Shown piece after piece: positions 13,690-64,000 of a stretch of DNA of 64,000 nt. A program made the translations under genes and the position numbers. The DNA comes from Clostridia bacterium (GTDB taxonomy: Bacteria; Bacillota; Clostridia; Oscillospirales; Acutalibacteraceae). Numbering within the stretch: the first letter of the stretch is position 1; every line of letters begins with the position of its first letter. Location: positions 42,664-106,663 of the forward strand of contig JAFULG010000002.1 in the NCBI GenBank assembly GCA_017473435.1, read 5' to 3'. The notes under the pieces were generated by a model. It did no database searches. It worked only from the letters and a program-made list of their open reading frames with translations, and was not told the origin of the DNA.

Positions 13690-14214
13690 ATGAAATATTT
13701 TTCCCTCAATTTTAGAATTGAAAAAGACGATTATAAGAACTACTACAAGGACTTCGGAAAAGCAATGCTTTTTAATCAGCTTAAGCGTTCGTTGATTATG
13801 ATTCTTTTCACTGCGGCAATGGCGATGTTTGTAATATCAGGTGATACAGTATGTTATGCCGTAACACTTATGTTTGTATTTTTTATTGCCTGCATTATGC
13901 CACTTGTGTTTTCAAAGAAAATTGCTCTTTTAATGCTTGATTCAAGAAACAGCAGAAAAGAAAATATTTACGATTTTTATTCTGACCACATTGAAATTCA
14001 TATTCCTGCAAGTGAAAAAAGCAAGGCATCAACCGAAAAGCATTTAAAAATGAACGGCTTTACAAATGTAACCGAAAGCAAAACAAACTTTTACTTTTCA
14101 TATATGAACGAAAAAATGCTTATTATCCCGAAGAGAGTTCTTGATAATGAAAAGTACGCAATGATAAAAAATCTTATAGAAAATTATTTTTCTGATGTGT
14201 ATATGACAGTTTAA
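13690..14214 (+). CDS. Small membrane protein, possibly related by layout to the preceding ORF
   Basis: 174 aa, starting 2 nt after the previous stop. Helices LIMILFTAAMAMFVI and AVTLMFVFFIACIMPLVF are followed by a soluble tail. Confidence 0.5.
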   Translation: MKYFSLNFRIEKDDYKNYYKDFGKAMLFNQLKRSLIMILFTAAMAMFVISGDTVCYAVTLMFVFFIACIMPLVFSKKIALLMLDSRNSRKENIYDFYSDHIEIHIPASEKSKASTEKHLKMNGFTNVTESKTNFYFSYMNEKMLIIPKRVLDNEKYAMIKNLIENYFSDVYMTV

Positions 14215-26800: not shown

Positions 26801-26814
26801 AGGAGGCGTCAACA

Positions 26815-27590: not shown

Positions 27591-27618
27591 GCTCCCCTTT
27601 CAGGGGAGCAATTTTTTT
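27591..27618 (+). terminator. Rho-independent terminator
   Basis: gctcccct-ttc-aggggagc followed by aattttttt. Confidence 0.75.
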
Positions 27619-35201: not shown

Positions 35202-35220
35202 AATACAAAGTTAATCCTGA

Positions 35221-35256
35221 ACAGAGACTCCCGTTAAAGGAGTCTCTGTTTTTTCT
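35221..35256 (+). terminator. Rho-independent terminator
   Basis: Stem acagagactcc (35221-35231) pairs with ggagtctctgt (35239-35249) around a 7-nt loop, followed by tttttt. Confidence 0.8.
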
Positions 35257-35427
35257 TTGCAGAACATATTGTGTCTGTAGAAATTTGAAACACTATATAT
35301 GATTATTATATTTTTCTGTGCAAATATAATGAGAAAAAAGAAATAAAAACGCAGCAAGGAAAACTTAACAAATAAAAAAAGCTATATATATGCAAAATGT
35401 AGAATTAAAAAAAAATTAAAAAATATA

Positions 35428-35456
35428 TTGAAAATACTGACTTTAAATGATATACT
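35428..35456 (+). promoter_or_regulatory. SigA-type promoter candidate for the giant ORF
   Basis: TTGAAA (35428-35433), a 17-nt spacer, then TATACT (35451-35456) with an upstream TG at 35448-35449. An A-tract-rich UP-like region lies upstream. This implies a leader of about 127 nt. Confidence 0.55.
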
Positions 35457-38500: not shown

Positions 38501-41500
38501 GACTGGTATAAGTTCTTTACAGGTGCTGCCTACGGTGCCTCCGGAAATTCAGAATATGACTATACCATGATTCTTCATGTTCTTGATAAGGCTCCTATTG
38601 ATACAAAGGTAGGTACCGGCGTTCTTTCAAGATCGTATTGGGCACCCTTTACTTACGGCGGAATTTCAACAGATGAAAGGGGCAACTATAAGCCCGGTGA
38701 TGTAATTGTTGCAGGTCCAAATGCAGGTAACGCTCTTGATCCCGGATATTTCAAAGGCGAGCTTCCCCTTTATTATCAAAACGCTTCAGGCGCAAAGAGT
38801 GATGAAGCACTGACAGGATATGAACCTGTTTATTTCGACAGTGCTGCTTGTTGGCATATTAATGACTGGGATGATTTCTACCGTACATTCGCAACTGCAA
38901 CCTGCGGACTTCATGTTCCTCTTGCAGAACTTGTTACCAAGAAGTCAGCTGCATCAAGTATTTACGGTGAAACTGATATTCTCGGTCTTGACGTTACGGT
39001 TCCTCTTAAGAATACCGGTGACGCTCTTTATGACAGACTTTTCATTCCTCTTTACAGATTGCTTGGTATCAGCGATTACTACAATGTAAACTCCAATCCC
39101 GGCGGCTACCATGGCAGACAGGACATTCTTTATGCCAGCGGTACCTATTCATATGAAAACGGCTTCGTTGATGTATCATCAATTACGGATTCCGGTTTTA
39201 CACTTTGGAAATATGTACTCGAGCCTATTATTTATTGGCTTGAGAACGTTCTCTTTGTTTCTCCTGTAAAGACAATAGCTGAGCTTCTTCCCAATCTGCT
39301 TGCTATGCTTGAGTATGATCAGCTTATGCCTAAGCTCAAGAATATTCAGGCTGACATTGATGCTGTTGTTAAGCCTATTGGTATTACTCTCCGATTTGAC
39401 GTTCTTATTCTCAACCTTTCAGATATCGTTGTTCCTCTTCTTGAAGGACTCGGTCTTACAAGTGATGCTCTTTCGGGCGGTATCAACGGTCTTCTTACGG
39501 CTCTGATGGGCGGTACACGAACTACATATTACAACAAAGATGAAAAACTGCCTAACAGCGATAAAAATGTAACCTGGTTGATGGAAGTTTCAACCGAATT
39601 GCAGGAAGTAAAAGATGCAAACGGTAAGGTTGTTCTCGGCGATGACGGTAAGCCTCTTATGCAGGAGGTTAAAGTAACCAGCGAGGAAAATCCTGCTAAA
39701 TGGGTATCGGGAGATACGACTTATTATATTAAGAATCCCGGCTTGCTTACTTCGGTAATGTACGGCTTGTTCCTTAATAAGGATGACGTTACAAAGAACT
39801 CCTTCCTTGACTGGCTCTGGAGCACAACCTCAGGTGAGAAATCTCAGGTACCTCTTAACATTCCTGTAAACCGCTTCATGTCAGCAGGTACGCTTTATAA
39901 TCCCAAGCTTCCTGTTAATCAACAGAGTAACGTTACTCTTATTGAAGGTGTTTACGGCACAGTTAAGAACTATCATATCTATGCAGAACCCGGTATGTCT
40001 GTTCTTACTCTTTTGCGTTGGCTCCTTAATGAAGGTACCATTGATGTAATTATGCCTCTTCTTAACGGTCTTATCAAACCTACTGTTAATGAAGAAACCG
40101 GCGAAACACAGCCAAGCATACTTGATACAATTTTACCCTTGCTTGACGGTCAGGCAGATAACATTATGGCTATTGTTATTTGCTTACTTAATGACTATGT
40201 AATCGAGTACACAACATATGAAGATCCCGCTCAGAATCCCAAAGATTGGAAAAACTGGAATGCAGACGGTACTGCAGGCGAATCTTATATTAATGATGAC
40301 GGCTCCTCTAAGTTTGCTGTTGGTACAATACTTGAAAAATATCTTTCTGAAGGAAATGCCAACATAACTGATGAAGAGCGAACAAGCGGTAATTACACAG
40401 AAGCCGAACTTATTGCAAAGGCTGACCTTGCAGTCGCCAATGCTGATAAGCTTATCAACTCACTTGCCACAACGCTGTTTGTTGCACTTGAAGGAACCCT
40501 TATGGGTATTGATGCAGTTCGCGACCTTGGTTTTGGCCCTGTTATCGAAAGAATGAAAGCTTCAATCAACAGTGATAACCCTGCTGATAAGGTTACACTT
40601 GAAGATGTTGTTGCTGATACAGTTATCGGTAATAATCTGGTTGATATGCTTATGAATCTTCTCTTCGGTAACGGTCTTCCCACAAAGGCTAAGGATGCTG
40701 CCGGAACAGCTATCCAGGCTCACGAAGGTGCTGACTCAATGAAGATGAACTACACCTACGGTGACGGCACAACAAAGGAACTTACCTTCTATATCACAGA
40801 GGGTGATAAGGATAAAGATGTTCTTCTTGACGCAAACGGCGATCCTGAAATCGTACGTCAGGTTAAGTACAAACCCGTTCTTGATGAAAATGGCAAGGAG
40901 ACAGGCCAGTTCACAGACGATATCATCGGTTTTGTAGTTAATGAAGGTCTTCTCGGTGGTCTTTTCGCTGATCCTACAAGCATTCTTAATAAGGTTCTTG
41001 AGGCTCTTGGTGAATTTAATCTTGATCTTAGTCCTGCAGGTTTCTATAAGGCTTATACTGATACTACAATAAGCGGCTACAATAAAGAGCTTGCAGCTTG
41101 GATGAAGAAACAGGCTGAAGCCTTTGCCGGCACAGCTCTTGCTGACAGTAATGTAGAGGCAACACTTAAGACTATGACCTGGGGTGACCTTCGTGCACCG
41201 AAGGGTACAAAGTGGTTTGATGAAAACACTACAGATATGGATCTCAAGTTTGACCGTTTCGGTGAACTCATCTGCGACGTGCTTACTCCCATTAACCCCG
41301 TACTTGCATTCCTTCTTTCAGGTCAGGATATCGTTCTCTTTGACGAGCTTAAGCTTCAGGGTGAAAATGGCTATTCAAGAGGTATTGTTGTAATTCTTGA
41401 AGCTCTTGGTCTTGATGCAGCTTGTATGAGTCAGAACAGATTCGATAACTTTGTATACAAGGCACCTGCAAATACAGGTGAAACAGGCTCAAAGCTTCAT

Positions 41501-44500
41501 CAGTATATGAACAGTAATAATAGTGCATATGATAACGATGTTAGCGTTGATGACCTTTCAAAAGAAAAAATCACTCTTAACGGTAAGGTTGTAGAAAGAA
41601 GATTTGCAAAAACAATAAACTCACCTCTCAAGCCTCTTATCGTTGCTATTAAGGAGCTTCTTCTCGGTATTGAAGAAAACGGTACAGTTGTTGAACCCGG
41701 TCTTCTTGATTCACCTCTTACAGTTCTCTTCTCAAAGCTTCCCAACATTGCTTACAACCTGTATCTCTTTGAAACTGTAGAAACAGACCTTTTTGGTGAA
41801 GAGACGGTTAAGAATACCTATAACTTCTCAATCGCTGTTAAGAACCTTATTGCTCCCGTAACAAAGGTTCTTGATGTTGTTGATCCTGTTCTTTCCAGAC
41901 TTCTTAAGCTTGATATCAATGAACTGCTTGACAGCATCCTTGATATTGAAGCTCTCGTAAATAATCTTGTTGGTAGTCTTGTTGGTGGTGCTGACAGTAA
42001 GGGTACAAGTATGAAGATTTTCGACTTCGCTAAGCTTGCTGCCGACTCTTCAGTAATCAACAGAAACGCTACAACGAACCGTTATAACTTCACTAAGTTC
42101 ACCAAATTTGAAGGCTCACCCGGTAAGCTCTTCATCACTCTTATCAGAACTCTTCTTACAAGCGAAATCGTTGGTGCTATCGGTGGTCTTATCGCAAATG
42201 CATTTGGTGTAAACGATGAGACTCAGAATGTAACTGACGAACAGAAGGAAGCTTCAGAGAGAATTAAAAATATTGTAAAGATGATTCAGACTAACCTTTG
42301 TAAGCCTGATACGAAAAATGAGCTTGAAGGTGGTATGTACGTTGACTATCTTACAAGTATAATTCTCGATATCTTTACAGACTACCTTCCTTCAGACGGT
42401 GAATTCTACTTCTATGAAATCATTAACCGTGTAGATACTGAACTTATTAAGCTTGAGGATCAGATCAAAGCTATGAATGCGTACGGCGTTAAGCATCAGG
42501 GTTATGATTGGGCGAACAAGCCTAAGGATGATGAAGGCAACCTTCTTTTCACAGAAGCAGAAGTTAATACAACAATTGAAAATCTTGACTATGTTATAAA
42601 GAATGCTGTTCCTGAAGTACTTGCAACTCTTCAGGCTAATGGTATCCTTGGTGACGGACTTGATGCAAATCTTGCAGGTGATGCAGGTCTCTGGGGTCTT
42701 GTGAAGGGTCTTTTAGGTGATTTTATCCTCAAGGACGATTTCCTTACAACGCTTGCTAACCTCATCTGCGGTCTTCTCGGCGCATCAGGCGATACAGGCA
42801 CAACAGGTGTTATTCAGCAGGTTCTTAAGTCAGCAGGCTTTGATATCACCTTCAATGCGTTCCTCTATAAAGCAGACGGCAAAACAAAGTCCGAACTTTA
42901 CAGTTACTTTACATACGGTTTCTACAAGGAAAACGGTAGCCTTAAGCCCGGTGCTTCAGGTGGATACGATATGTACTACCTTGATACTGATGGTGACGGT
43001 TTAATTGACGACCTTAATAATAACGGTACTCATGGCGATGAAGGTGACGAAGTTGAAATCACCTGGGCTCAGGTTTACAAGAACCATAGCTATGATGTAT
43101 ACGAAACAAACGAAGACGGAGAGCTTGTTATAGTTAATGGCGAGCCTCAGTTCAAGACAGTTAAAGTACAGAAAACCAGAGAAGTTCAGGATGAAAAGGA
43201 CGGCGCTCCTGTTGTTGATGAAAACAATAAGCCCGTTATGAAAACACAGTACGCTTACTATTACTTCAATGAAACATTTACAGAAGTTTGGCTTGAAAGC
43301 GATAAGCGTACCAAGTATACCGTAAACGGTATTGAATATGATCTTGTAAAGGTTTACTCAGGTGAGGATGAGGATAAGACTCATAAATCACGAGTAAATG
43401 AAGAAACCGGAAACACAGAGTATGCTTATACCTATGTCAAGAAAGACAAGGAAGAAATCTGGCTTGATAAGTCCGGTGAAAGCACCGTTACAGTAGGACC
43501 AAGCTCCTATAGCTTGTCTATTGTTGAAACAGATAAGCTTGAGAATGTACTTGATGAAAACGGCAAAGTAGTTCTTGATGATAACGGTGAACCTGTAACA
43601 CGCAAGGTATATGAAAAAGCTCTTCTTACAACTGCATATCCGCAGCTTAAACAGGACGGTAAGTATGTTTATAGCTACAAAGATGCCGAAGGCGTTGAGC
43701 AGACATACTTATCAAATTACCAGCAGGAAACAAAACTTGATAGCGGCGAATCAAAGGACGGAAAGAAAATCTTCTTCGACCTTAGTCCTGTATACTCTGA
43801 AACACTCACCGACCGTGCATGGGTTTGGGGTATTGATGATCCTGTCCTTGTTAAACCTGATGGTACATTAAGAGATGAATTCACGGCTAAGAAGGTTGCC
43901 GTTGTTAATACTCTCTGGAGTGTTCTTGAACCCTTCGCTAACATTTTCTCAGCACTCTTTGCAGGCGATGCTCTTACACTCTTTGACGGAACACTCAATA
44001 TCGAAGGCGGTTGGGGTTACATCAACTATATCCGTCCCTTGATGAATGCATTCGGTCTTGATGCTATTCTTGAACAGCTTTCAGCCGAAGAAAAAGAAGC
44101 AATCCAGACAAAGGATGCAAATGGTCAAGTAATTGAGCACCTTATGACAGAAGAAGAGTATAAGGCAATGGTTTACAATGCAGACGGTACTCTTAATCCT
44201 GAAGGTCTCGGAACATCAGTAAAGAATGTAATTAACTATGTATTCTACTTTGTTGAAGTTCTTTGTAACTATCCTGTAGAAACACTTGCAGTTGCTCTTC
44301 CCACTCTTGCATATTTCCTCTATGCAGACGGTATTACAACTCTTGTAAGTAACATACTTGTTCCTATTACAACTCTTACTGACAGACTCGCAACAATTCT
44401 GAACATTGACATTAATGCTATAGGTGCAGGTCTTCTTGACATGCTTGCAACAGGCTCATGGAAGAACTTCCAGGTTGCTCTGGAAACATTCATGAAGATT

Positions 44501-56500: not shown

Positions 56501-59500
56501 ACAACCTACACCGTAAACGGCACAACATATGACCTTGAAAAGGTAACAAAGGACAACAAGCATGTAACTAAGTTTATTATCGAAGAAGCATGGGGCATCG
56601 CCGATAAGGACGACTTCCTCAAGATTGTCTACGAAATCACCGCAGTTGTTGAGCCTCTCCTTGCATTCCTCTTCAAGGGTGAAAACATCAATCTCTTTGT
56701 TGATACTCTCAGCCTCAAGGGTAACAACGGCTTCGAAAATGCTATCGTTCCTCTTGCAAAGGCACTCAATATCAAGCTTGCACATGAAGATGCAGATGAT
56801 TATGCAGATGCTAACGAAATGCTCAAGGCAGTTGTAAACGGTATCTTCGATCTCGTTAAGGATATCGAAAAGTCACCCATCTCAACAATTCTTGAACTCC
56901 TCGGCAGTGCATCCTACTTCATCGCAAACGACGGTGTTGCACTTGTTATCAACAACCTCATCAGCCCTGTTCTCGGTCTGCTTTCAATCTTCGAAAAGAA
57001 GACAAGCAAAATCGTAGACGGTGAAACTGTGGTTAAGAGCGAAGGTATCACAATGACTGATATCAACAAGCTTCTTAAGAGCCTCATCAAGATGGATCTT
57101 AACGACATCACAGGTATTGCAGGCGCTGACGGAAGCAAGCTCGTATCAATGATTAACGGTCTTCTTCCCAAGGTTTACCTTGAAGGCGAGGACGGTTCAA
57201 TCAGACTTGCAGAGCCTCTTCCCGCTAAGTTCTTTGAAAACATGAGCAAGTATGCTATCAACTACGACAGCCTTGATAAGGATGAAAAGGTTGATGCAAA
57301 CATCAGAAAACTTGCTGTAGAGAGATGGTCAGTTGATAAGGCAGACGTGCTTATGTATCTCCTTTCAACAGTTTGCTCCGACGAATTCCTCGCATTCCTT
57401 GGTGACCTTATTAAGGCAGAGGAAGGCACAATCCTCGGTGATCTTATCTTCGGTCTCTCCGGTGACGAAGATCTTGTAATCAACATCATCTCAATGCTTC
57501 TTAACAACTATAAGCTTGTATACAAGAAGTATGCACAGATTGATATTACAAAGATTGATGTTGTTCCCACAGAACCCTTCACTGACGAAAATCTTGCACA
57601 GGCAATCCAGGCAATCGACGGTCTTGTTCCTGCAATTATCGGCTTGTTCGTTAAGGATGCAGACTCACTCAAGGCGCTCGTTGAAAACCTTGTTGCCGAC
57701 GCAGATCTCGGTAACCTTCTCATGAATCTCCTTGTTCCTCTCCTTTCAGGTCTTGATATTGACGAAATCCTTGGCTATGTTAAGGAATTCAGCAACCTCA
57801 ATGTTAAGCTTGATCCTTCAGCATGGACAGCAAACGCTAACAGCGAAATTGCTAAGTTCATCCTTAAGGCTGATGCAGATGAAGACGGCAAGGTAACATG
57901 GAAGGAAGTAGAGGCATACTATACTCAGTATGAATTCACTTACACAATTCCCGCTACAACAGATACAGCAGCAAAGAACGTAACAGTTTATAAGCCCGCA
58001 GGCACAACAGAAATCGTTGTAGGCGAAGGCACAAATGCTGTTAAGTACAAACTTGCTCCTGTTTACGAGTACGAATACAAATACACCGTAACAACAGGTG
58101 AAGGCGAAGCTGCAAAGAAAGAAGAAAAGACTATCGTTCTTGCAGAAGCAGATCTTACCACAACAAAGATTGACAATAAGGATGTTGAAATTACCTTCAA
58201 CAGAAATATCCAGAAGTCAAAGATGGTAAGCGAATACAACTGGAATATCAAGACCTTCAATGATCTTAAGACATTTGCAGTTGACCTTCTCAAGCCTCTT
58301 GACGTAGTATTTGAGCTTCTCCTTGCAGGTGCAAACATCATCGTTGCTCCTGACAATACAACTGACGTTGAAGACGATAAGGCTCAGATCACCGTACGAG
58401 GTAGTGACGGCTACAACTTTGCAATCATTCCTCTCCTCGAGGCTATCGGTGCAAAGGATCTCAAGTCTCAGGCTGAATATGAGGCATTCTCAAAGAGGCC
58501 TGAAGTCGGTTCACACCTTGCATATATCCTTGATGTACTCTTTGCAGAGGTTGAGACAATTCTCAATGCTCCTGTATCAGAACTTATGTCAAGACTTGCA
58601 AACCTCTTCTACTTCATCGGCAACAACTCAATCAACGTTCTTGCAGATAACCTTCTTGCTCCTGTAAATACTCTTATTGCAGAAGTAGATCCCATCTTCC
58701 CGCTTGCAATCAACATTGATGTAAGCAAGGTTGGTGTAGAGGGTGCAAAGGTTCTTGAGCTCTTCCTCGGTAAGGCTCACGACGGCGTTGAAGCAGGTAT
58801 CCATGTAAATGTAGAAGCAAGTGCACTTGCAAATCTTCTCAACAACCTCCTTGCAGGTATAGAGATTAACGGTGCTAAGCTTGGTCTCAGCCTCGACCTT
58901 AACTGGATCGAAATCGCAAGAAAGATGGCTAAGACAAAGCTTCCCGACTCACAGAACACTACCGGTGCAGAAGTATCCAAGCTTGAATCAAGCATGGATT
59001 ACGAAGCTTACGAAAACGTTATCGGTACAACCGGATACACAGACGGCAAGTACTATAACATCGAAGGTAACGTAGTTGACACCTTTGTAACTCTCCTTCA
59101 GGTAATTCTCACTGAAGATAATACAGAAGCTATCAGTAACCTTGTAACAGGTCTCCTTAAGGATGCACCTCAGGAGGTTAAGGATATCCTCGACGGCATT
59201 CTTTCAGATCCCGATGCTATCGAAGAGCTTATCGGTGCAGTTGTTCTTCTCCTCACCGGCGAAGGCGCAATGAAGGATTATCCCTTAAGCTTCGTATTCA
59301 AGTACCTTGGCGAGCTTAACTACAACTACAGCACAATTAATGGCGGCGAAGCTGCAGTTAACAGTGCAATCAGTAAGTTTGATGCTATGATCGCCCGTGA
59401 GGCAGTCGGCGTAATCAAGATGTTCGGTGACACAACTGAAACAGATCAGACCAAGTGGACATTCTTTAACAAGATGTCAATGGCTCTTGAAGCTGACGAT

Positions 59501-62500
59501 ACTCTTGCTGACCTCGTAGCATGGCTCCTTGAAGAATTTGCCTTCACAGCAGCTAACTTTGATACAGTAATGGCTCTTCTCAACAATATCCTTGCTGACA
59601 ACATTACTGCAGATCTCTCAGGTATTATCTCAACAATTCTTCCCATCAACCTTATGCCTTACGAATTCGCAAAGGCTACAGGTAATACAGCTCTTCATGC
59701 ATACGTTGCAAAGGCATATGCAGCAGACGCAACAGAAGACGCTAAGAAGGCAGTAACATGGGCAGATGTACGTGACGCAAATGCAACAAGCAAGAAGAAC
59801 GGCGATAAGACAGAATGGACTTATGCAACAAGCTGGAACATTTCCGGTAAGGATGCATTCATCGGTGCATTCATCGACCTTCTCAAGCCTCTCAACCCGA
59901 TTCTTGACTTCCTGTTCGCAGGCAAGAACCTTAAGTTCAAAATCGACGGTGTTGAACTCTGGGGTGCAGACGGTTATGCTAATGCAATCGTTCCTCTTCT
60001 TAACGCTCTCGGTGCAAAGCAGCTTGGCGTAAATCTTCCTGCAGATGCAGCTAACACAACAGCCGCTCTCGGTTACATTGTTGATGCTCTCCTCGGTAAG
60101 GACGAAGCAATTACAGGCGGTCTTGATGACGAAGCTCAGATCACTCATATCAAGGGCGTTGTAGATGTAATCTGCGAAGCACCTCTTACCTCAATTCTCA
60201 CAATCGTAGGTAACCTCAGCTACTTCATTGCTAACGGTAACCTTGACGAGCTTATCCAAAACCTTGTAGCTCCTGTAATGGGTATCCTTGATCTCATCAA
60301 GCCTATCCTTCCCATCGGCGAGCTTGACAAGATTATCGAAGGTCTCGCAAAGATTACTCTTCCCGGCGGTAAGGCTCTCAATGTTACTAACATTATCAAC
60401 ATCGCAGGTGAAAAGGGTGAAGGTCTTGTAGCTCTTATCAATGAGCTCATCGGCACTCTCAAGGCATATGAAAAGACTCGTCTTGAGCTTGACGCAGACC
60501 ACAACATCGTTAAGTACACCTTTGCTGAAAAGGAAGCAGACAAGGATAACAAGTACATCGAGCTTACCGATGAAGAAGGTAACCTCACTAACGAATATGC
60601 AAAGGTACTTGAATCCAGTCAGATTGTTGAATACACTAAGGCACAGACTGAATTGTATCCTGATGCTGAATTTGTAGAACGCGATAAGACAGACGCTGAC
60701 GGTAAGGTTGTTACCGTAAAGGATGAAAATGGTAAAGATGTTCCTGTAAAGGTTTACTGGAGAGTAATTCAGTACATCAGCATTCTTCCTGAAGACTTCT
60801 TCGAGGATCTTTCAAGATACGTAGTTGAAAACAGCAAGTATGAGGATTCCTTCCGCGGTGAAGGCGACGAGGGCGACCCCGTTGACGAATGGACTATCAA
60901 TGCTGCTGAAGCACTTATGTATGTCCTTTCAACAGTTCTTGATTATGACTTCTTCTCAACTATCCTTAAGAAGATTGGTCTTAATCTCGGTGACGGTATC
61001 GGTCAAATCGTTGTATCAATGGCTGATAAGGAAAATGAGCTTATCGATGTAATCGTAATGCTCCTTAATAACTACGATGTTGTATACTCAAAGATTGAGC
61101 AGGCTCAGCTTCCCACTGATACTACCAAGACGGCAGCTCCCTATGCTTCCTTCGGTAAGAATGAGCAGAATGAGAACCTTCTCAATAATGAGAATACATC
61201 TAATGCAGTTGCAGCACTTGATCCTATTATCAACACTGTAGTTGCAATGCTTGCCGGCGGCAAGTCACTCGGCGGTCTTGTTGACGGACTTATAGCAGAT
61301 CTTGACGTTGCAAACCTTATCATGAACGCTCTTGTTCCCGTACTCGCAACTCTTGAAATTGATGAGATTCTTGCATACGTGAATGAGCTTACAAACATTC
61401 AGCTTACAACTCTTAATCCTTCACTCTGGACAGATAATGCAAATGTTAAGTTCGGTTCAGAACTTAAGAACTTCCTTAACGCTGTTCCCAAGAAGACAGA
61501 CGAGACAGGTAAGGAGCTTGCTCTTACATGGAAGGATGTAGCAGAATTCTACACCAAGTATGAATACACCTACACAATTCCTGCTAAGCAAGCAGTAGGC
61601 AAAGAGGGCGACAAGGACTTTGTAGCCGCAACAGAGGCTAAGACAGTAACAGTCTTCCTTGATGAAGGTGAAACAACAATTACGGTTGGTACCGAAAGCT
61701 ATGAGCTTACACCTGTATACACTTATGAGTACTATTATAATGATGCTGATAATAAGATTCAGAAGTACACTTCAACCACGGCAGGTCTTACAAAAGCCGA
61801 TGTAGACAACAATAAGGCTACAGCAGACGTTGAAGTAACCTACACCGGAAACAGCACACGCAACAAGAAGATGTACAGCGAGTTCAACTGGAATATCACC
61901 GGTCTTGACTCAACACTCATCAACTTTGTATGTGACCTTCTCCAGCCTCTTGATATCGTATTCCAGATTCTTCTCAGAGGCGAAAATATCAAGGCTCTTG
62001 AAGATACTTCAGCAGATCGTGCTGACATCAGAATCATGGGTGGCTTAGGCTACAATTACGCTATTATCCCGCTTCTTGAAGCATTCGGTGCAACAGGTCT
62101 TAAGACTCAGACTGAATATGATACTTATTCAAAAGAACAGGGCTCATCACTCAAGTATGTGCTTGAAGCACTTATCGGCGAAGTAGATAAGATTCTTGCT
62201 TCACCTCTCAATGAGCTTCTTTCAAGACTTGCAAACCTCTTCTACTTCATTGGTAGCGACGGAATCAACACAGTTGCTAATAACCTCCTTGCTCCTCTCA
62301 ATACTCTTATTGAAGAAGTTGACGACCTTGTTCCTCTTGCAATCAATATTGACATCAGTAAGATTGCAGCAGGTGAAGGCATAGGTCTCTACCTTCTTAA
62401 GGAACATGAAGGCGTTCCCGCAGGTATCACTGTAAATGTTGCAGGCGCTGACCTTGCAGAGCTCATCAACGGTCTTATTGGCGACCTTAAGATCGGCGAC

Positions 62501-64000
62501 GTAACTCTTAAGCTCAAGCTTGATCTTGACTGGACAGCAATCGCAGCTAAGATGGCTAAGAAGGATAAGCAGGGCTACATTCTCACAACAGCCTCAAAGC
62601 AGGATTACACTAAGGGTACAATCAGCAATCCTGATACACCTGATCTTGTAAATATCACAGGCGATGCAGCAAATGCAATCGTAACGCTCCTTGACACAGT
62701 TCTTACAAGAGAAAACTGTAAGAATATCTATAACCTTGTTGAAGGTATACTTCCTGATAACTTCGATGCAACTCTCAAGAACCTCATTCTTGAAATTGTA
62801 GGTAGCGACGCATCCATCAAGGGTATTGTTGCAGCAGTTGTACTTATCCTTACAGGTCAGTACGATGTTGAATCACTTCCCTACATCTTCAAATATCTTG
62901 GTATTCTTGAGTTTGCTAAGGCAGGAAATGCAGCAACAGCAGTAGACAGCCTTGATAAGGCTCTCGTTAAGGCTGTTCCTGTAATTATCGAAATGCTTGC
63001 AAAGGATAAGACAGATCCTTCTGACTTCCTCTACAAGCTTTACAACGGAACAGGCAAGAACGCAACACTTGTGAACATCGTTAATTACCTGCTTGGTGAT
63101 TTACTGTTCACTGACAGCATGATGAGCACCATCACCGGTGCACTCCTTGGTGTACTTAAGAACCTTGGTTCAGATATCACAGGCATTCTTAAGGACTTCC
63201 TCGGCGTTGATCTTGCTCCCGTAGCCTTCGCAGAAGCAACAGAAAATGCAGAGCTTAAGGCATACGTTGCCAAGGCATATGCAGCTGACGCAACGGAAGA
63301 AGCAAAGGCAGCCGTAACATGGGCAGCTGTAGTAGCAGCAAATACCGATGCAAACGGTAAGATTGCTCCTGTATTCACCGGCATTGATGCTGAGGGTAAG
63401 GACGAAATCAAGACAACAGATGAAAAGAAGGATGCATTTGTAAATGCAATTCTCGATCTCCTCAAGCCTCTTGAAAACGTGCTTGCATTCATCCTTACCG
63501 GTAAGGACCTTGAAGTTACTGTTAAGAACGGCAACGAAAAAGCAACACTTACCCTTAAGGGCGGCGATGCTTACAACACAGCAATCGTTCCTCTCCTCTT
63601 CCAGGGTCTCGGCCTTGAAGAGCTTATCACCGGTACTAACAAGTCAACAGTCAGCGGTGCTAAGGATGCTGCAACAGCAAACGAAGCTATCAAGAATACT
63701 CTTGATTACATCCTTGTTGACCTTGTAAATGCAATTGAAAAGGCTCCTCTTTCAACAATCATCACTGTTGTTGCAAACCTCGGCTACTTCATTGCAAATA
63801 ACGATGTTGCAGTTGTAATCCAGAACCTTGTTGCTCCTGTATTCGGCATCATTGATGCTCTCGGTGGTGTAATTAGCAGATCAGAGCTCGATCAGCTTAT
63901 TGGCGAACTTGTAAATGTTACACTTCCCAACGGTAAGAAGCTTAACATCACTAACATTGTTAACATTGCCGGCGATAATGGCGCTATCCTTATTGACCTC
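35591..64000 (+). CDS. Giant secreted protein of unknown family, at least 9,470 aa; 3' end outside the window
   Basis: AAGGAGG (35576-35582) lies 8 nt before ATG 35591. I translated this frame (positions equal to 2 mod 3) by eye to nt 64000 and met no stop. The signal peptide is MKVGKKALSLLLAVIMLMSSVSVSFSVFA|AEGD. All track ORFs in this span lie in other frames and are 296 aa or shorter. It is not in the track because no stop occurs before the window edge. Confidence 0.93.
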   Translation, partial: MKVGKKALSLLLAVIMLMSSVSVSFSVFAAEGDIDYAYSILSTYFKELMVAIDRSEGAIAKAGGADKADYSDPAFDSVPVKDGSKWVIRRDTINGGWVAVSRAVSYYAENTVARNKTYNMLVDDMLDELQAVSATFPDGQTIQDYEKILGYYRFGDTSEGETFGTQASVTLQIGHGFDLLAWDSVADIKADQTYSTAVLKFTPKGELATGYSLKSAEDISFTSTDYIEVEDNYATDLKTIKGVLEWCVGNTKVQPEDWTLDSGTFKTWFAADTLTVDQLGQITKLLALFDMTMGIAGLGYTPAEIWDHYVAPETGINKTYTETKAWYETSGARAEAYSRAIAYKAELDTLMATPLEGKKAAELNAVKEAIEAVIQEMNYDQFSSLIYEIINELAEDYIGEATSTVDTYTKNLGIKVGQAYAVEELSDNILTSGVLGSTFIIADKLAELAAAADTLQTIDDLTKGKTDDELKDFVWEETQAYKDNVNWLSAATVLLTLIDSYVISNAGFDDLKETTTASGNAVTKENYDKVNGKLSVVALDIYGSNYYEQKSKMDTIISKTILAGKGYNAIFELSKEFETYYTAALDLSKDTTMEDVYNTVYPNGIDQYADFIHEMKAAVAERFYNQMLTIENYFKDGGKVTYYNFESIIARAEGTWFETGSKKDNSGNMVIYSIIGNYLLGGEEYGIDYVAETGDYTIKQLEDMYNKVFGVGGYYTKALQFKDGLQALKNLAYDTSKVRETERDKKILAYILKAERVKESQYGWESCLGSEFSVDEIKKYVSEIELALDADGLVEYDGEIITTGSIEKLMTAAVEDLDRILLSDDLGTLLNDLTAKQNEETGETTGFLGVWSRDYTFKNPGGGTTSVKAGDECKNLREFLINLIVDLLWGGSLQTTLFTALNGAVGPACYNMAAQSATDLKVAKRDLWYFLPQILHMGLPTMPHDYVQNWTNPVTGDTNKEISKISDWTIDWYKFFTGAAYGASGNSEYDYTMILHVLDKAPIDTKVGTGVLSRSYWAPFTYGGISTDERGNYKPGDVIVAGPNAGNALDPGYFKGELPLYYQNASGAKSDEALTGYEPVYFDSAACWHINDWDDFYRTFATATCGLHVPLAELVTKKSAASSIYGETDILGLDVTVPLKNTGDALYDRLFIPLYRLLGISDYYNVNSNPGGYHGRQDILYASGTYSYENGFVDVSSITDSGFTLWKYVLEPIIYWLENVLFVSPVKTIAELLPNLLAMLEYDQLMPKLKNIQADIDAVVKPIGITLRFDVLILNLSDIVVPLLEGLGLTSDALSGGINGLLTALMGGTRTTYYNKDEKLPNSDKNVTWLMEVSTELQEVKDANGKVVLGDDGKPLMQEVKVTSEENPAKWVSGDTTYYIKNPGLLTSVMYGLFLNKDDVTKNSFLDWLWSTTSGEKSQVPLNIPVNRFMSAGTLYNPKLPVNQQSNVTLIEGVYGTVKNYHIYAEPGMSVLTLLRWLLNEGTIDVIMPLLNGLIKPTVNEETGETQPSILDTILPLLDGQADNIMAIVICLLNDYVIEYTTYEDPAQNPKDWKNWNADGTAGESYINDDGSSKFAVGTILEKYLSEGNANITDEERTSGNYTEAELIAKADLAVANADKLINSLATTLFVALEGTLMGIDAVRDLGFGPVIERMKASINSDNPADKVTLEDVVADTVIGNNLVDMLMNLLFGNGLPTKAKDAAGTAIQAHEGADSMKMNYTYGDGTTKELTFYITEGDKDKDVLLDANGDPEIVRQVKYKPVLDENGKETGQFTDDIIGFVVNEGLLGGLFADPTSILNKVLEALGEFNLDLSPAGFYKAYTDTTISGYNKELAAWMKKQAEAFAGTALADSNVEATLKTMTWGDLRAPKGTKWFDENTTDMDLKFDRFGELICDVLTPINPVLAFLLSGQDIVLFDELKLQGENGYSRGIVVILEALGLDAACMSQNRFDNFVYKAPANTGETGSKLHQYMNSNNSAYDNDVSVDDLSKEKITLNGKVVERRFAKTINSPLKPLIVAIKELLLGIEENGTVVEPGLLDSPLTVLFSKLPNIAYNLYLFETVETDLFGEETVKNTYNFSIAVKNLIAPVTKVLDVVDPVLSRLLKLDINELLDSILDIEALVNNLVGSLVGGADSKGTSMKIFDFAKLAADSSVINRNATTNRYNFTKFTKFEGSPGKLFITLIRTLLTSEIVGAIGGLIANAFGVNDETQNVTDEQKEASERIKNIVKMIQTNLCKPDTKNELEGGMYVDYLTSIILDIFTDYLPSDGEFYFYEIINRVDTELIKLEDQIKAMNAYGVKHQGYDWANKPKDDEGNLLFTEAEVNTTIENLDYVIKNAVPEVLATLQANGILGDGLDANLAGDAGLWGLVKGLLGDFILKDDFLTTLANLICGLLGASGDTGTTGVIQQVLKSAGFDITFNAFLYKADGKTKSELYSYFTYGFYKENGSLKPGASGGYDMYYLDTDGDGLIDDLNNNGTHGDEGDEVEITWAQVYKNHSYDVYETNEDGELVIVNGEPQFKTVKVQKTREVQDEKDGAPVVDENNKPVMKTQYAYYYFNETFTEVWLESDKRTKYTVNGIEYDLVKVYSGEDEDKTHKSRVNEETGNTEYAYTYVKKDKEEIWLDKSGESTVTVGPSSYSLSIVETDKLENVLDENGKVVLDDNGEPVTRKVYEKALLTTAYPQLKQDGKYVYSYKDAEGVEQTYLSNYQQETKLDSGESKDGKKIFFDLSPVYSETLTDRAWVWGIDDPVLVKPDGTLRDEFTAKKVAVVNTLWSVLEPFANIFSALFAGDALTLFDGTLNIEGGWGYINYIRPLMNAFGLDAILEQLSAEEKEAIQTKDANGQVIEHLMTEEEYKAMVYNADGTLNPEGLGTSVKNVINYVFYFVEVLCNYPVETLAVALPTLAYFLYADGITTLVSNILVPITTLTDRLATILNIDINAIGAGLLDMLATGSWKNFQVALETFMKIDENGNLVTSVDTGLSLTKSLFALLTTLLELDLSGILGEDDPYGGKYGIVLFINKEAELAAKAKLKEAEALKVDEINNSTEIAKLTEEAKNIRGTALSDFLKSIAALGDPVSEHSGSGHGHDPAEEYIAENYADYVYVTKDGQVPVSKAEVLMFILDFAFQNETLKKVIGNLLGYDITDENTSDAELLDEILTNVFTDYNALVDVIVALFSGYTANDILELELKTIDQENHFRFYEDYGFYDHKDVLKENEKLKAENKELITEISRVKTSATIDNLDALVGKILNLSLIKEPLTRADDLTTPENEQGIFNMFGLNGDDTITLQALVDSIFETYLYDDKGLNSIMDMLIGLLGGESASQIINIVLDILKGASKDVDGKPTMNLNPDAFKNNVPELAGTIDKATDLNGDGNISWDEVAKANSQYQYVVKNEKDEVLETLYSEKTPAELDKNDEGALVLDGKVVSADMIQEQDYVIKTEQDNNEKDIQVKYYRYTYSVSVGDSLQNVPVELKESGITEWVEVADDPETDENEEVKHLVKAVMRDTDKQKTAVKISATWNINTRDEFVDTLWRCIKPLAPVFAMLFAEGELRVFDKIALSGSKGYLGFVLPLINALGIPALKKTDGSSYLTADKYISDYDAYKTAVYGKDARLTFDEHGYLNDTDGKVMLTTITDALFALVDSLCARPVNTLLTIIPYLAHAIDSDGIDVILENLLVPVTTITGMIEDIYSINILGIIKDLLRGLIKDLNDKAGVPSDSTDYEDQGSTAAAAAALLLEKVEEAEENTQTGGEAAIAALAEPDPALDLSGAGGANYKFLDLIKELVKGLSINGTSLSSIIDVDNIFTNLSSIAWMPTEMKGNLESTGEVQKVIMNASGRGGSIDRYDATEYTVDRESVLIKVLNDIVFTDGIRDLIGGLLKFDFSNKAMTTLTETDKDYLLTVLLYGVFEDPEALERLLIDLLSWYDVEYQDARVSSASNVTEFDSFNEGRDELVYGEQGNGLDKEQMEKLPEDFDSLIGKIVPAVIGMLPEGTLGDLTLTGANLEEMVHNLLVGLMADKEITNEDGTKTMKYGFATQLVELLVGALGGNATVSMIVGLLPTIIDGVDVELKDFKKVNAAFNSYFKKTDGTELNTWAEAYEYFKTIKKYVAPENPAAGYVPPAYEADTLNLYAVDDAGKPIPEFKLDEKGAKIPVYKNAPYEEAFGARYYTDAGSAQTENEQPLENTYVVATKDGKVVYTYQYELKLTNTNSFGIKDYDDILELVSQILAPFAPVLRFLLTEADLVALDGVHVTGGDGYDRFIIPLFEVLGVDSYMNDSDSSYEGSYKFINKKAFAALDNEAFTKQVVAYIDALISMVLNTPIQTIVDLIPELVFFIYSDGLAQAVEQLVAPLLTLVDMVNDITAKEVVIEGRDDKLVALDIVGLITNLINDSLMKPNGLPVVDGFYGENGLITRLLTAEGLETLLQGLLDKANTYIYAYTYEVPAAEEGKEAEVKTVYLDSENQSTYIPDETKPDEAFNLTRAADKDKKVINLGLDKDGVGGADEKPIEGIFRWILKKTCKIEKVATLREFDAVNGKVWGVKANRADTLVQIISETLLGGDMLTSLLASFGVEIKEGEILDTILKAVTGENKYVIFVVLLKYFNEYEVETMLMEYLSFEKQEYEYEAIDGSRFTKRKLRRAIKKLDGSLLTVVPELIPMLEDVDLIRTLLDKIGGYKQGQSLNDLVHELLNAYVFNDKTVNELMGLLIGLLGGENLAGTLGTVLPLVKDIVGIDVTPAGFAAESSSQAVKAFLGAAIDAAAAEEVVDKDGKPVVDEDGKAVLKGKENVTWQDVAEFYTVYVYSYNDVTAETKFAYTYTDKDGKIVNYYSAEEDDDLKIIVDEEEVKLEAKGTKTFYSYTTNYMYSNDATLHGTPVEGKDGKTWFGYEQATDADGNLLWDETKGGEAAGVPLAKTEKKTVDVIDEKTGEPKKNADGTTVTKEIDVPVRATKVVAPEGDEAFNWHFDRFDTYQGKKNAFIEILAGIVTPLEGVLNFLLRGDSLRILPEGDDGAVLELYGNKGYENVIMPLFQALGVDQIGGTIVSAKDYEDGRGTDMTLYAITEGIFSIIEAITLNPLEYIFTLLPSLSYFISCNGPETVLNNLLSPVLALLNLAYPIVGDLLDDLIGASISDIFGDFMPDTINYTVKVNKKSPVYKTTTEVVDGVETEVKIKATTTSEKVTYEDKTYYITAGDGKGEVIADAYVVEYDEAAQAPVFNTYKAYALTDLLKICGEYGENLVNIINNLVGPLLLGKDATEEELAAFKLLDDTFFADYAAQALTVNKQKDEAKFYYFVETADGSWIKVRDLLYKSEMGTIKETHYVVDWFKVDIADSAVFLLDNVLSETLLREIAKLAKIDLTDEDNILAAIIKNLINNDNPGLIITSIITALFENYTIKYNELYGEFFTPDHSHLDNLKTEEDKTKAAAVPGQLDKIIKNALPAVAPILSKLLAPKDGKKPTILNDIVDKFDTIANTTDEVADLYEVAQYLLDELVLSDELVNTLAALIVNLIGGTDIIGTIIEYFGLTGIKLDPQSYLATVEKAYTVDDMKTAVAAFKSIIGEATTWADVVRNDTTPLYAYEYATGENDDKGNPKKATVYLADANATTYELTKTVGEGEAAKEVKDEVALTQVLTEDGKRVVKAEYNNVVDGKKVAELNWGVNNAKDKKDAFIKALSVIIEPLFPVLQLVLQGKILTLVGHNKKSYTPVNMVEYNSDGTHITIEDDSRTGEEIGNGYIELMGVNGYEELLVPLLDALGGLEAFKAYDEDNNPDGIMTADEFNGLANAYDMLDYIVNVVFAFVNNLVASPVTYLANYLPSLLYFIGSDGVYNAVQSVLQLVNGLIAVVEPLIGPNGIKLSDTLGLPLDLLMLKLDDSTVPGKVQKTNVDGKYAYIAKNDETKTEIYLDKSGLTKNGDVEIEAVMEDGFITVKGLCSMINDLIKKPDFINKTLLLKLAGYLGDFEVISTVRRTAGSLLYDTETEAYYRVVEVNGKNTTILVAQKEGKLWVDDLGNTVNKPVDKDGKITTIVGDTQYTLTGLLQFALADGLVSGFVDTSKMEGILKTILDNVMGPNATENVAAILIKLLNKYVITYEAIEEPAGIDTEGKSFAEYLDALVAAENTKAEAEDDYTAKTAKEIYAELEENNELKLDQIAEALTYFNNAVEYGKYGVEKAEVQLALNNIQALIPEILALLNVGSLESLIADNLYTDNIANLLVGLLVGLLGGLDDKTWNTITEILGYVKDIVGLNIDISPAAYAVKDNVFKPFIDAVNVERDVKNDAGEVTGKERIPVEDLTWSDVANFYTKYEYKYEVEAAKAAEGVEGEEGYKAAVPAKFETVWLADANATKYTPAEGDHAGTEYELIKGETTEYEYSYTIPATEEGKEDEVKKFFSTDDKLTETKVGETTYPVTKTGETNVTHNSKVESDFDWGIGSADGLNAKADKLVKVVTDLLKPLDCVLSLLLAGGTYNFAETKAYGDSLGAFEEINIMGGSGYNYAIIPLLEALSVPAESIKTQAEYEDTIATKGTLGYILETVLHTVNDNLDKPLDFVLGLFANLAYTISKDGATTFVSNLIAPLSEVIEAIEGVLPVAIKINLMALMDGGSIAEILLGNDVALKKAKVGLTLDLDCATLEELIAKVLAKFVSGFDITIDFAEIAAKSAKRDEMGGIEYNNSKVDPVWDICLGTPGKNIQGDTAATIITLLATVITSENIDALLKMLKVDLSTLPVAVTELIDKAIDSPDVLIGAVIKLLASNYDITSIIKEMSFYFLGEAEYDYKNIEGGHNAVNKAIGKFDRMINNLIPKLLKLLGNELEKPVEFIKNIYVALGEDAEDADIADVVDYLLNDFVFNDDMMNTLLGLIVGLLGGIEAKTFNTIADLVNKILGIDLTPAGVAEKSYGEIGAVASLIEAVAEEAGKTVKEITWAEIAAAYTKYEYRYMTKAAEGAPDTEGYKAAEYATVYLDGAEETTYTVNGTTYDLEKVTKDNKHVTKFIIEEAWGIADKDDFLKIVYEITAVVEPLLAFLFKGENINLFVDTLSLKGNNGFENAIVPLAKALNIKLAHEDADDYADANEMLKAVVNGIFDLVKDIEKSPISTILELLGSASYFIANDGVALVINNLISPVLGLLSIFEKKTSKIVDGETVVKSEGITMTDINKLLKSLIKMDLNDITGIAGADGSKLVSMINGLLPKVYLEGEDGSIRLAEPLPAKFFENMSKYAINYDSLDKDEKVDANIRKLAVERWSVDKADVLMYLLSTVCSDEFLAFLGDLIKAEEGTILGDLIFGLSGDEDLVINIISMLLNNYKLVYKKYAQIDITKIDVVPTEPFTDENLAQAIQAIDGLVPAIIGLFVKDADSLKALVENLVADADLGNLLMNLLVPLLSGLDIDEILGYVKEFSNLNVKLDPSAWTANANSEIAKFILKADADEDGKVTWKEVEAYYTQYEFTYTIPATTDTAAKNVTVYKPAGTTEIVVGEGTNAVKYKLAPVYEYEYKYTVTTGEGEAAKKEEKTIVLAEADLTTTKIDNKDVEITFNRNIQKSKMVSEYNWNIKTFNDLKTFAVDLLKPLDVVFELLLAGANIIVAPDNTTDVEDDKAQITVRGSDGYNFAIIPLLEAIGAKDLKSQAEYEAFSKRPEVGSHLAYILDVLFAEVETILNAPVSELMSRLANLFYFIGNNSINVLADNLLAPVNTLIAEVDPIFPLAINIDVSKVGVEGAKVLELFLGKAHDGVEAGIHVNVEASALANLLNNLLAGIEINGAKLGLSLDLNWIEIARKMAKTKLPDSQNTTGAEVSKLESSMDYEAYENVIGTTGYTDGKYYNIEGNVVDTFVTLLQVILTEDNTEAISNLVTGLLKDAPQEVKDILDGILSDPDAIEELIGAVVLLLTGEGAMKDYPLSFVFKYLGELNYNYSTINGGEAAVNSAISKFDAMIAREAVGVIKMFGDTTETDQTKWTFFNKMSMALEADDTLADLVAWLLEEFAFTAANFDTVMALLNNILADNITADLSGIISTILPINLMPYEFAKATGNTALHAYVAKAYAADATEDAKKAVTWADVRDANATSKKNGDKTEWTYATSWNISGKDAFIGAFIDLLKPLNPILDFLFAGKNLKFKIDGVELWGADGYANAIVPLLNALGAKQLGVNLPADAANTTAALGYIVDALLGKDEAITGGLDDEAQITHIKGVVDVICEAPLTSILTIVGNLSYFIANGNLDELIQNLVAPVMGILDLIKPILPIGELDKIIEGLAKITLPGGKALNVTNIINIAGEKGEGLVALINELIGTLKAYEKTRLELDADHNIVKYTFAEKEADKDNKYIELTDEEGNLTNEYAKVLESSQIVEYTKAQTELYPDAEFVERDKTDADGKVVTVKDENGKDVPVKVYWRVIQYISILPEDFFEDLSRYVVENSKYEDSFRGEGDEGDPVDEWTINAAEALMYVLSTVLDYDFFSTILKKIGLNLGDGIGQIVVSMADKENELIDVIVMLLNNYDVVYSKIEQAQLPTDTTKTAAPYASFGKNEQNENLLNNENTSNAVAALDPIINTVVAMLAGGKSLGGLVDGLIADLDVANLIMNALVPVLATLEIDEILAYVNELTNIQLTTLNPSLWTDNANVKFGSELKNFLNAVPKKTDETGKELALTWKDVAEFYTKYEYTYTIPAKQAVGKEGDKDFVAATEAKTVTVFLDEGETTITVGTESYELTPVYTYEYYYNDADNKIQKYTSTTAGLTKADVDNNKATADVEVTYTGNSTRNKKMYSEFNWNITGLDSTLINFVCDLLQPLDIVFQILLRGENIKALEDTSADRADIRIMGGLGYNYAIIPLLEAFGATGLKTQTEYDTYSKEQGSSLKYVLEALIGEVDKILASPLNELLSRLANLFYFIGSDGINTVANNLLAPLNTLIEEVDDLVPLAINIDISKIAAGEGIGLYLLKEHEGVPAGITVNVAGADLAELINGLIGDLKIGDVTLKLKLDLDWTAIAAKMAKKDKQGYILTTASKQDYTKGTISNPDTPDLVNITGDAANAIVTLLDTVLTRENCKNIYNLVEGILPDNFDATLKNLILEIVGSDASIKGIVAAVVLILTGQYDVESLPYIFKYLGILEFAKAGNAATAVDSLDKALVKAVPVIIEMLAKDKTDPSDFLYKLYNGTGKNATLVNIVNYLLGDLLFTDSMMSTITGALLGVLKNLGSDITGILKDFLGVDLAPVAFAEATENAELKAYVAKAYAADATEEAKAAVTWAAVVAANTDANGKIAPVFTGIDAEGKDEIKTTDEKKDAFVNAILDLLKPLENVLAFILTGKDLEVTVKNGNEKATLTLKGGDAYNTAIVPLLFQGLGLEELITGTNKSTVSGAKDAATANEAIKNTLDYILVDLVNAIEKAPLSTIITVVANLGYFIANNDVAVVIQNLVAPVFGIIDALGGVISRSELDQLIGELVNVTLPNGKKLNITNIVNIAGDNGAILIDL
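41360..63613 (+). repeat. Protein-level tandem array of at least 12 divergent modules inside the giant ORF
   Basis: The anchor motif G-x-x-G-[YF]-x-x-x-[IL]-[IV]-P-L-x-x-A-[LF]-G starts at 41360, 44006, 46286, 48365, 50654, 52820, 55067, 56720, 58400, 59963, 62039 and 63560. Spacing is 1,521-2,646 nt, always in frame. Confidence 0.85.

Follow-up and report, generated by a model that had tools for sequence, protein, structure and literature searches.

The 64,000-nucleotide stretch of DNA analysed here (the window; positions 42,664 to 106,663 of contig JAFULG010000002.1, assembly GCA_017473435.1, Clostridia bacterium) contains a giant gene whose predicted product carries an export signal and an array of very long, strongly diverged repeat modules. 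Frame 2 of the + strand is uninterrupted from 35504 to 64000, giving 9,499 codons, and leaves the window still open. The likely start is the ATG at 35591, which has the sequence AAGGAGG just before it and is the first ATG with a ribosome-binding site; from this codon the giant gene (35591..64000, +) holds 9,470 codons inside the window and is cut by the window end. The product begins with a signal peptide of the Sec type, MKVGKKALSLLLAVIMLMSSVSVSFSVFA (35591..35686, +), in which a basic n-region and a hydrophobic core precede a small-residue cleavage motif that is followed by AEG; the Kyte-Doolittle mean is 2.23 across the 19-residue core. No other segment of transmembrane-grade hydrophobicity was found across the 9,470 residues. 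The composition is acidic, with 15.6% Asp and Glu against 8.5% Lys and Arg, and is low in Cys, His, Met and Arg, with Ser making up 4.4%. The signal peptide is followed by a non-repeat N-terminal region of ~1,040 residues (35687..38800, +), presumed to be a distal 'head', for which self-BLAST gave no internal repeat matches and searches of Pfam, NCBIfam and PDB gave no match. This region is retained among related proteins, being collinear with the full-length homolog P0006 at 26% identity and having 45–53% identity to five others (P0202–P0206).

The original prediction described at least 12 divergent tandem modules in this protein, each marked by an anchor motif. All of the anchor peptides (12/12) lie exactly where they had been placed, at 41360, 44006, 46286, 48365, 50654 and 52820 in modules W1–W6 (40970..53332, +), whose spacings are long (693–882 residues), and at 55067, 56720, 58400, 59963, 62039 and 63560 in modules W7–W12 (53333..64000, +). 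Successive anchors are 882, 760, 693, 763, 722, 749, 551, 560, 521, 692 and 507 residues apart. The periodicity stood when the protein was compared with itself by BLAST in 300-residue chunks, which gave a full, regular lattice of 374 off-diagonal matches with a median identity of 29%, the top pair sharing 48.6% identity across 288 residues (E 8.5e-76). Circularity was avoided by a leave-one-out procedure, in which a hidden Markov model (HMM) built from 11 module cores was used to score the 12th, each in turn. The left-out modules scored 64–195 bits, whereas none of 200 shuffled versions of the left-out sequence exceeded 9.6 bits. The predicted number of modules proved too low, as an HMM of 916 modules from the whole family detected a degenerate 13th copy in the window, module 0 (residues 1100–1337; 38801..39514, +), at 61.3 bits with an independent E-value of 1.2e-20 and with the anchor remnant TGDALYDRLFIPLYRLLG. 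The copies had been said to resemble each other at the protein level only, and this was right, because blastn between them returned only nine weak matches (65–87% identity, mostly <110 nt), all in the C-terminal six modules. Judged from these sequence comparisons, the giant protein consists of 13 or more very old, strongly diverged copies of a 500–880-residue module.

The conserved skeleton of the module is less uniform than the four parts first proposed. Element 3 (LKPL..VL.FLL), a beta hairpin, the anchor and element 4 (L.YFI...NLLAPV) make up a universal part that is present in essentially all modules, but the uniformity of elements 1 and 2 had been overstated. In its strict form, TWxDVAxFYTKYEY, element 2 is found in four modules only (residues 6327, 6955, 7465 and 8675), and element 1, strictly GIDLxPxxF, in 3 modules; weaker versions of both persist when the full-module alignment is reduced to its majority consensus. 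In module W9 the two regions can be seen side by side, with a beta-sheet insert at element 2 (TWKEVEAYYTQYEF...; 57896..58270, +), modelled by AlphaFold2 (AF2) with 6 strands, followed by a universal core (58286..58780, +) that contains the element 3 helix, the beta hairpin, the G..GY anchor helix and the element 4 helices.

The structure of the module was predicted with AF2, both for a single module, with the 12 paralogs as alignment, and for two modules with re-cut boundaries (residues 7170–8330), with 22 sequences. The mean predicted local distance difference test score (pLDDT) was 56.6 for the first model and 61.1 for the second, which had a predicted template modelling score (pTM) of 0.47. 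Core segments reached a pLDDT of 70–87, and the sheet at element 2 was the most confident part of the first model (pLDDT 81–87). The layout is the same in both models, with ~10–12 helices, a ~6-strand sheet at element 2, the long helix of element 3 and a hairpin that leads into the G..GY turn and the anchor helix, after which come the four or five helices of element 4 and a short three-strand sheet. This agrees with the helical bundles with beta inserts that had been expected from composition, at the moderate confidence of models with mean pLDDT of 57 and 61 and a core of 70–87. Foldseek searches with the AF2 models gave no significant match, the best E-values being 0.3 and 3.5 in PDB and 0.5 in BFVD, and a search of the PDB sequences with the module profile gave a best E of 0.16. 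No known fold was thus detected for the modelled module, although one could still be hidden at a pLDDT of 57–61, and because of this model quality the Foldseek result is not proof of a new fold.

Residues conserved in at least 70% of the 916 family modules are G, G, Y, P, E, A, L, G, P, L, P, Y, F and N together with aliphatic residues, and the resulting family signature is F..L.P....L...LL.G ... G..GY.....PLLEALG ... P.......LPNL.YFI...GL.....NLL.P. The conserved positions of the 916 modules include no His, Cys, Ser, Asp, Lys or Arg, and this lack of any conserved catalytic-type residue argues against catalysis.

Two subtypes take turns along the last six modules, a feature that the original prediction did not see. 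The A type (W7, W9 and W11) has the anchor G..GYN[YF]AIIPLLEA and 36–58% identity among its copies, while the B type (W8, W10 and W12) has the anchor G..G[YF].NAIVPL and 36–45% identity. Both the dot-plot and the matrix of core identities give a super-repeat of A plus B, ~1,200 residues long, as the true period of these six modules, and the best high-scoring segment pairs align residues 7233–8300 with 8422–9499. Across the giant protein as a whole the module cores are 22–39% identical, reaching 58% within the A type.

The age of the array was examined by pairing its modules with those of homologs. Modules W3–W12 pair one-to-one with modules 1–10 of P0003 at 61–75% identity, each having a single clear best partner, and W1–W8 pair in order with modules 1–8 of P0006 at 28–44% identity, with large margins over the second-best partner. 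From this one-to-one pairing it follows that an array of at least eight modules predates the split of the giant-protein and P0006 lineages. No positional orthology of modules was found in more distant family members. A comparison of the giant gene with its ortholog at locus L010 gave dN 0.19 and dS 0.77, and the dN/dS ratio of ~0.24 (0.23 for the module cores, 0.30 for the beta inserts) is that of a gene under purifying selection along its whole length. Identity between orthologs is highest at the anchor and element 4 (82%) and lowest, with indels, in the region of the beta insert (45–55%). In one cluster of homologs, 62 members have lengths between 6,546 and 6,572 residues. The view that the array is ancient and selectively maintained, being neither a recent duplication nor an artefact, is therefore borne out by the pairing with P0006 and P0003, by the dN/dS ratio and by the same architecture having been assembled independently many times. 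It needs one refinement, in that W9–W12 are a later duplication of an A/B pair.

Relatives of the giant protein were recovered by an exhaustive profile search that covered 1.84 billion cluster representatives. A word-indexed homolog search was ill-suited to the giant protein, returning fragments only (2, 12 and 5 matches) and missing P0003 at 61% identity, and the family was revealed only by the profile search, in which 602 proteins passed E<=1e-3 and 338 of them E<=1e-30. The 602 representatives are mostly 2,000–7,700 residues long, with 4–14 module matches. The only name attached to them is 'hypothetical protein', in metagenome-assembled genomes (MAGs) of Ruminococcus sp., Oscillospiraceae, Acutalibacteraceae and Clostridia. 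Their common architecture is a signal peptide, a non-repeat region of 850–1,900 residues, 2–14 modules and a tail of 200–280 residues, with modules 400–700 residues apart and a spacing that shrinks toward the C-terminus, as it does in the giant protein. The same kind of signal peptide begins 119 of the 164 family proteins of at least 800 residues. With 12 strong modules and one weak one, a signal peptide and an N-terminal non-repeat region, the giant protein has the features of this family. When one genome of each GTDB species was scanned with the A-type module alignment, 61 loci were returned, all in MAGs from the gut of humans, cattle, goat, sheep, deer and buffalo, the closest belonging to Acutalibacteraceae. 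As far as seen, the module family is confined to uncultured gut and rumen Oscillospirales. An origin of the giant gene from a plasmid or phage was considered and rejected, no match being found in plasmid or phage collections.

The original prediction had left room for the module to belong to a repeat family already described, and none was found in Pfam, NCBIfam or the PDB sequences, nor by Foldseek in PDB or BFVD. At E<=0.01, Pfam gave 0 families across the full 9,469 residues of the giant protein, and NCBIfam likewise gave nothing. Scans of 13 homologs against Pfam and NCBIfam (nine of them scanned whole against Pfam, and P0161 against NCBIfam only) returned no family, with the sole exception of one Flg_new_2 domain in P0164. 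The literature contains analogous giant proteins but, in what was found, no description of this module family. By these profile comparisons, the module family is not described in any curated resource searched. At two of the homologous loci, antisense frames of 3,300–5,200 codons lie open across the giant-gene homologs (L024 2–15616, − strand; L025 6152–16069, − strand); these are most likely an effect of composition in MAGs of 56–57% GC.

The full size of the giant protein was estimated from its orthologs. P0003 (6,933 residues) is collinear with residues 3565–9499 at 61% identity and runs 1,199 residues beyond, and the orthologs at four Acutalibacteraceae loci (L006, L007, L009 and L010), collinear with the giant protein at 64–69% identity, each continue for ~1,200 residues past the equivalent of the window end, including two extra modules and a tail. 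Because these collinear orthologs run ~1,200 residues and two modules further, the complete giant protein is predicted to have ~10,700 residues and 15 modules. The DnaA protein encoded at 6788–8089 of the window is identical to one on scaffold_157 (136.5 kb) of ENA ERZ28654267, and this scaffold should extend beyond the window by ~30 kb, and should thus include the 3' part of the giant gene that is missing here.

The C-terminal ends were surveyed in the same 164 family proteins. An amphipathic helix rich in Phe, Lys and Ile, with a hydrophobic moment of ~0.6 and a mean hydrophobicity of ~0.3, ends 116 of the 164; its consensus is ...APNGFIAFFQKIIEFFQKIINFFKKLF, and the form in the clade of the giant protein is LNWFQRLIKKIKEFFEKIF. 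The four closest orthologs (L006, L007, L009 and L010) all end in LNWFQRLIKKIKEFFEKIFSIFK, and P0003 also has an amphipathic tail. In 19 of the 164 the end is a transmembrane helix with a lysine cluster (KKKK) behind it, and a single protein (P0164) has a sortase-like NVETG with a transmembrane segment and KKRK behind a linker rich in Pro, Thr, Glu and Asp. The remaining C-termini are mostly truncated gene calls. The smallest members of the family (P0161 and P0167) have ~875 residues and consist of a signal peptide, two modules and a C-terminal transmembrane helix. In our reading the amphipathic helix, the transmembrane helix with lysines and the sortase-like signal would be three interchangeable devices for retention in the envelope.

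The window covers the replication-origin region of a low-GC Firmicute chromosome, with the gene order dnaA, dnaN, recF, gyrB, gyrA, LCP transferase, mnmG, rsmG, noc/soj/spo0J and serS. Two small open reading frames (179 and 174 residues) lie between gyrB and gyrA at 13148–14214 (+) and have no convincing family, with one weak YcxB-like match. The GC content of the giant gene (43%) is slightly higher than that of the housekeeping block (40%). Over 38001–64000, within the giant gene, the GC skew is near zero or negative (−0.07 to +0.06) and the AT skew is positive (up to +0.10), and the co-oriented, origin-proximal genes ahead of it have a clearly positive GC skew. A Wzm/Wzt- or TagGH-like ABC-2 exporter (25964–27558, +) follows serS and lies 0.4 kb upstream of a block of two genes, the second of which is the giant gene. 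The first (27981..35201, +) encodes a secreted protein of ~2,400 residues without the module, with its signal peptide at an internal ATG. This protein gave no match in Pfam, NCBIfam or PDB, an exact lookup was also empty, and its sequence contains YTYxFxGW-like and Cys-rich (C..C) repeats. A full-length homolog, 42% identical, lies directly upstream of the giant gene at locus L069, and a C-terminal fragment of a homolog lies directly before the giant gene at L070. The 2,400-residue protein is thus a conserved upstream partner of the giant gene.

The last 40 residues of the 2,400-residue protein (CGCACHRNNVWGAIFRFFHKIIKLFTGEFKCC, 35070–35198) align with the extreme C-termini of three family members (P0065, P0071 and P0043), with blastp-short E-values of 4e-5 to 7e-3 in a small database, and share with them the same Cys-flanked, Phe-rich amphipathic helix. 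An HMM of 118 family tails failed to detect the tail of the 2,400-residue protein, and for this reason the idea of an anchoring or sorting signal common to both large proteins stays a lead. A terminator-like hairpin with a 13-bp stem and a T-run (35219..35251, +) lies between the two large genes, followed by promoter-like sites before the giant gene (35285–35312 and 35428–35456, +). A further terminator-like hairpin follows the ABC ATPase gene (27591–27609), and promoter-like sites were found before each large gene. These hairpins and sites, identified by consensus scan only, suggest that the exporter, the 2,400-residue gene and the giant gene form three transcription units. Orthologs of the ABC-2 exporter (67–74% identical) lie 2–3 kb downstream of the giant-gene end at two loci (L024 18301–19882 and L025 18008–19595); since the exporter stands close to the giant gene in these two more distant rumen MAGs despite their other gene order, the linkage survives rearrangement. 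A conserved operon downstream of the giant gene was also considered and rejected, as the genes that follow the giant homologs are mutually unrelated and include sulfite reductase, siderophore and amino-acid ABC systems, ornithine transcarbamylase, aldose epimerase and alpha-galactosidase.

We consider that the giant protein has a slightly better than even chance of being an elongated cell-surface fibril that is tethered to the membrane at its C-terminus and built from a new type of module, with a structural or adhesive role. Its host belongs to the uncultured gut Oscillospirales and stands near Acutalibacteraceae. The protein would be exported by Sec and its signal peptide cleaved afterwards. 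The amphipathic helix rich in Phe, Lys and Ile, seen in the orthologs and falling beyond the window here, would then tether it to the outer face of the cytoplasmic membrane, and the chain of ~15 modules would form a long, semi-rigid stalk carrying the N-terminal region of ~1,000 residues through and past the wall. Each module would combine a helical core, built on G-x-x-G-Y...P-L-L-E-A-L-G / L-P-N-L-x-Y-F-I / N-L-L-x-P, with a variable beta-sheet insert, and the role would be that of a spacer, fibril or binding surface, not a catalytic one. A place at the surface and a role in scaffolding or binding are suggested by the signal peptide, the acidic composition and the three retention devices, by the absence of an enzyme signature and the variable inserts on a constrained core, and by the envelope-related neighbours.

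Several points weigh against the fibril. All homologs derive from metagenomes or MAGs, and the C-terminus of the giant gene itself falls outside the window. The pTM of the two-module model is modest, so that an elongated shape is not established, and no binding domain is recognisable in the giant protein. The presence of an amphipathic helix does not prove anchoring to the membrane, as such a helix could be a docking or secretion motif instead. The genes downstream of the giant homologs are variable and carry no functional hint.

A bolder form of the fibril reading is possible but doubtful. Here the module would have a new fold and the family would be a large, wholly undescribed class of envelope fibril in uncultured gut and rumen Oscillospirales. 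The fibrils would be kept on the membrane by a shared amphipathic 'FFxKI' signal at the C-terminus, not recognised before, which would also mark the 2,400-residue partner, so that the two large proteins would belong to one surface apparatus.

The most serious rival to the fibril, although an unlikely one, is that the modules are the extracytoplasmic working parts of an envelope machine linked to an ABC transporter of the MacB/FtsX or Wzm/Wzt type, where they would hold, channel or organise wall glycopolymers or lipids instead of forming a passive fibril. At the loci of the smallest family members (L067 10001–15400 and L068 10001–15373) a MarR regulator gene is followed by the two-module gene, which ends 4 bp upstream of a MacB-like fusion of ABC_tran and FtsX. 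The ABC-2 exporter upstream of the two large genes in the window, and its orthologs near the giant-gene end at L024 and L025, point the same way. This evidence is thin, however, since apart from L024 and L025 it comes from the two small-member loci, which are 71% identical and count as one observation. The terminator and promoter signals part the ABC-2 operon from the 2,400-residue gene and the giant gene. Most giant homologs also have neighbours that are unrelated, and the need for 15 modules in a partner of this kind is left unexplained.

It is more improbable still that the giant protein forms a lattice or coat, such as an S-layer-like sheet, an exosporium or a spore appendage, in place of single fibrils. 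The protein is very large, acidic and conserved, is apparently encoded once per locus examined and is paired with a second large secreted protein, and many Oscillospirales form spores. Against a lattice, no SLH, CWB2 or other wall-binding domain was found with Pfam and NCBIfam, the C-terminal membrane-type anchors point to tethered molecules, and the number of modules varies between 2 and 14, an unusual variation for lattice proteins.

There is very little likelihood that the giant protein is a multi-module enzyme or a toxin-delivery protein, of the carbohydrate-active or polymorphic toxin kind. Many huge carbohydrate-active or toxin proteins are known from gut Clostridia (10.1101/2023.11.21.568195), but no catalytic, carbohydrate-binding-module, dockerin/cohesin, RHS or toxin domain was found with Pfam and NCBIfam (the giant protein and nine homologs being scanned whole by Pfam), the 916 modules have no conserved residue of catalytic type, and the C-terminus of the orthologs is an anchor and not a variable toxin tip. 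That the repeats are a product of chance, low complexity or faulty assembly has nothing in its favour and is refuted, with near certainty, by the leave-one-out scores, by collinear orthologs in many independent assemblies and by the absence of any near-identical DNA repeat able to mislead an assembler.

Comparison with known systems places the giant protein beside several large surface proteins to which it shows no family relation. The staphylococcal surface proteins of the Ebh/Mrp type have ~10,000 residues, FIVAR-GA helical repeats and a C-terminal membrane anchor. The likeness lies in the Gram-positive host, the signal peptide, the mass of ~1 MDa, the long and mainly helical array, the C-terminal tethering and the presumed rod spanning the envelope. 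The giant protein nevertheless has no match to FIVAR, GA or DUF1542 (Pfam at E<=0.01, NCBIfam), its repeat has 500–880 residues with a beta insert compared to ~126 residues in Ebh/Mrp, its phylogenetic range is different, and the anchor is an amphipathic helix in most members of its family and a transmembrane segment in Ebh/Mrp. Tethering by such a helix has a parallel in PBP5 and PBP6 of E. coli, where a short C-terminal amphipathic helix holds an exported enzyme on the outer face of the cytoplasmic membrane; the tails compared with them (...NGFIKFFQKIxxFFKNLF and LNWFQRLIKKIKEFFEKIF) have no sequence relation to these proteins and the analogy is one of proposed mechanism only. The giant protein also differs from serine-rich repeat and LPXTG adhesins, having 4.4% Ser and orthologs that end without LPXTG, the sortase-like NVETG being found only in the distant P0164, and from cellulosomal and amylosomal scaffoldins, having no cohesin or dockerin by Pfam.

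Further parallels are Giant1–3 of Apilactobacillus kunkeei, which have highly imperfect repeats (13 repeats of 366 residues in one of them), a C-terminal DUF5776, an N-terminal beta-solenoid and an Asn/Ala-rich composition (PMC12863079). They share with the giant protein a signal peptide, imperfect repeats, a conserved C-terminal segment, a prediction of elongated alpha-helical rods, consecutive giant genes and the lack of a known function (PMC12863079). They differ in composition and have no detectable sequence relation to it, and Pfam found no DUF5776, a C-terminal feature of Giant1–5 (PMC12863079), in the giant protein or in the scanned homologs with a complete C-terminus (P0090, P0109, P0128 and P0164). 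West-Roberts et al. (10.1101/2023.11.21.568195) have reported giant proteins in Clostridia, Oscillospiraceae among them, and a giant pair of >7,300 and >2,600 residues is encoded on the Hodor megaplasmid (PMC12934698). These come from the same order and habitat, are secreted and lie far above ordinary size, and in Hodor, too, a giant protein is paired with a smaller large one. They use known domains, namely RCC1, the Listeria-Bacteroides repeat, the YG repeat, dockerin and S-layer/MBG (10.1101/2023.11.21.568195, PMC12934698), whereas the giant protein has no Pfam domain of any kind, including RCC1 (PF00415), and is encoded on the chromosome beside dnaA-gyrA-parB-serS. Ebh and the A. kunkeei giants are therefore best taken as analogies and not as relatives of the family. 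A giant, repetitive surface protein of a Gram-positive bacterium is a known kind of molecule; what is new here is the module, with its size and probable fold, together with the amphipathic tail at the C-terminus.

The Oscillospirales (Acutalibacteraceae, Ruminococcaceae and Oscillospiraceae) are abundant and mostly uncultured in the human and ruminant gut, and to our knowledge little has been learned about how their surfaces interact with the host, with diet particles and with neighbouring cells. In this organism the giant gene would occupy ~32 kb beside the replication origin, and it belongs to a family of >600 clusters that is named in no database. With a module alignment and signature now available the family can be annotated and its distribution related to host or diet, and single modules of ~560 residues can be expressed for studies of structure and binding. 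If the amphipathic tail is a true anchor or sorting signal, it would represent a new mode of display on Gram-positive cells and could be used to find other surface proteins.

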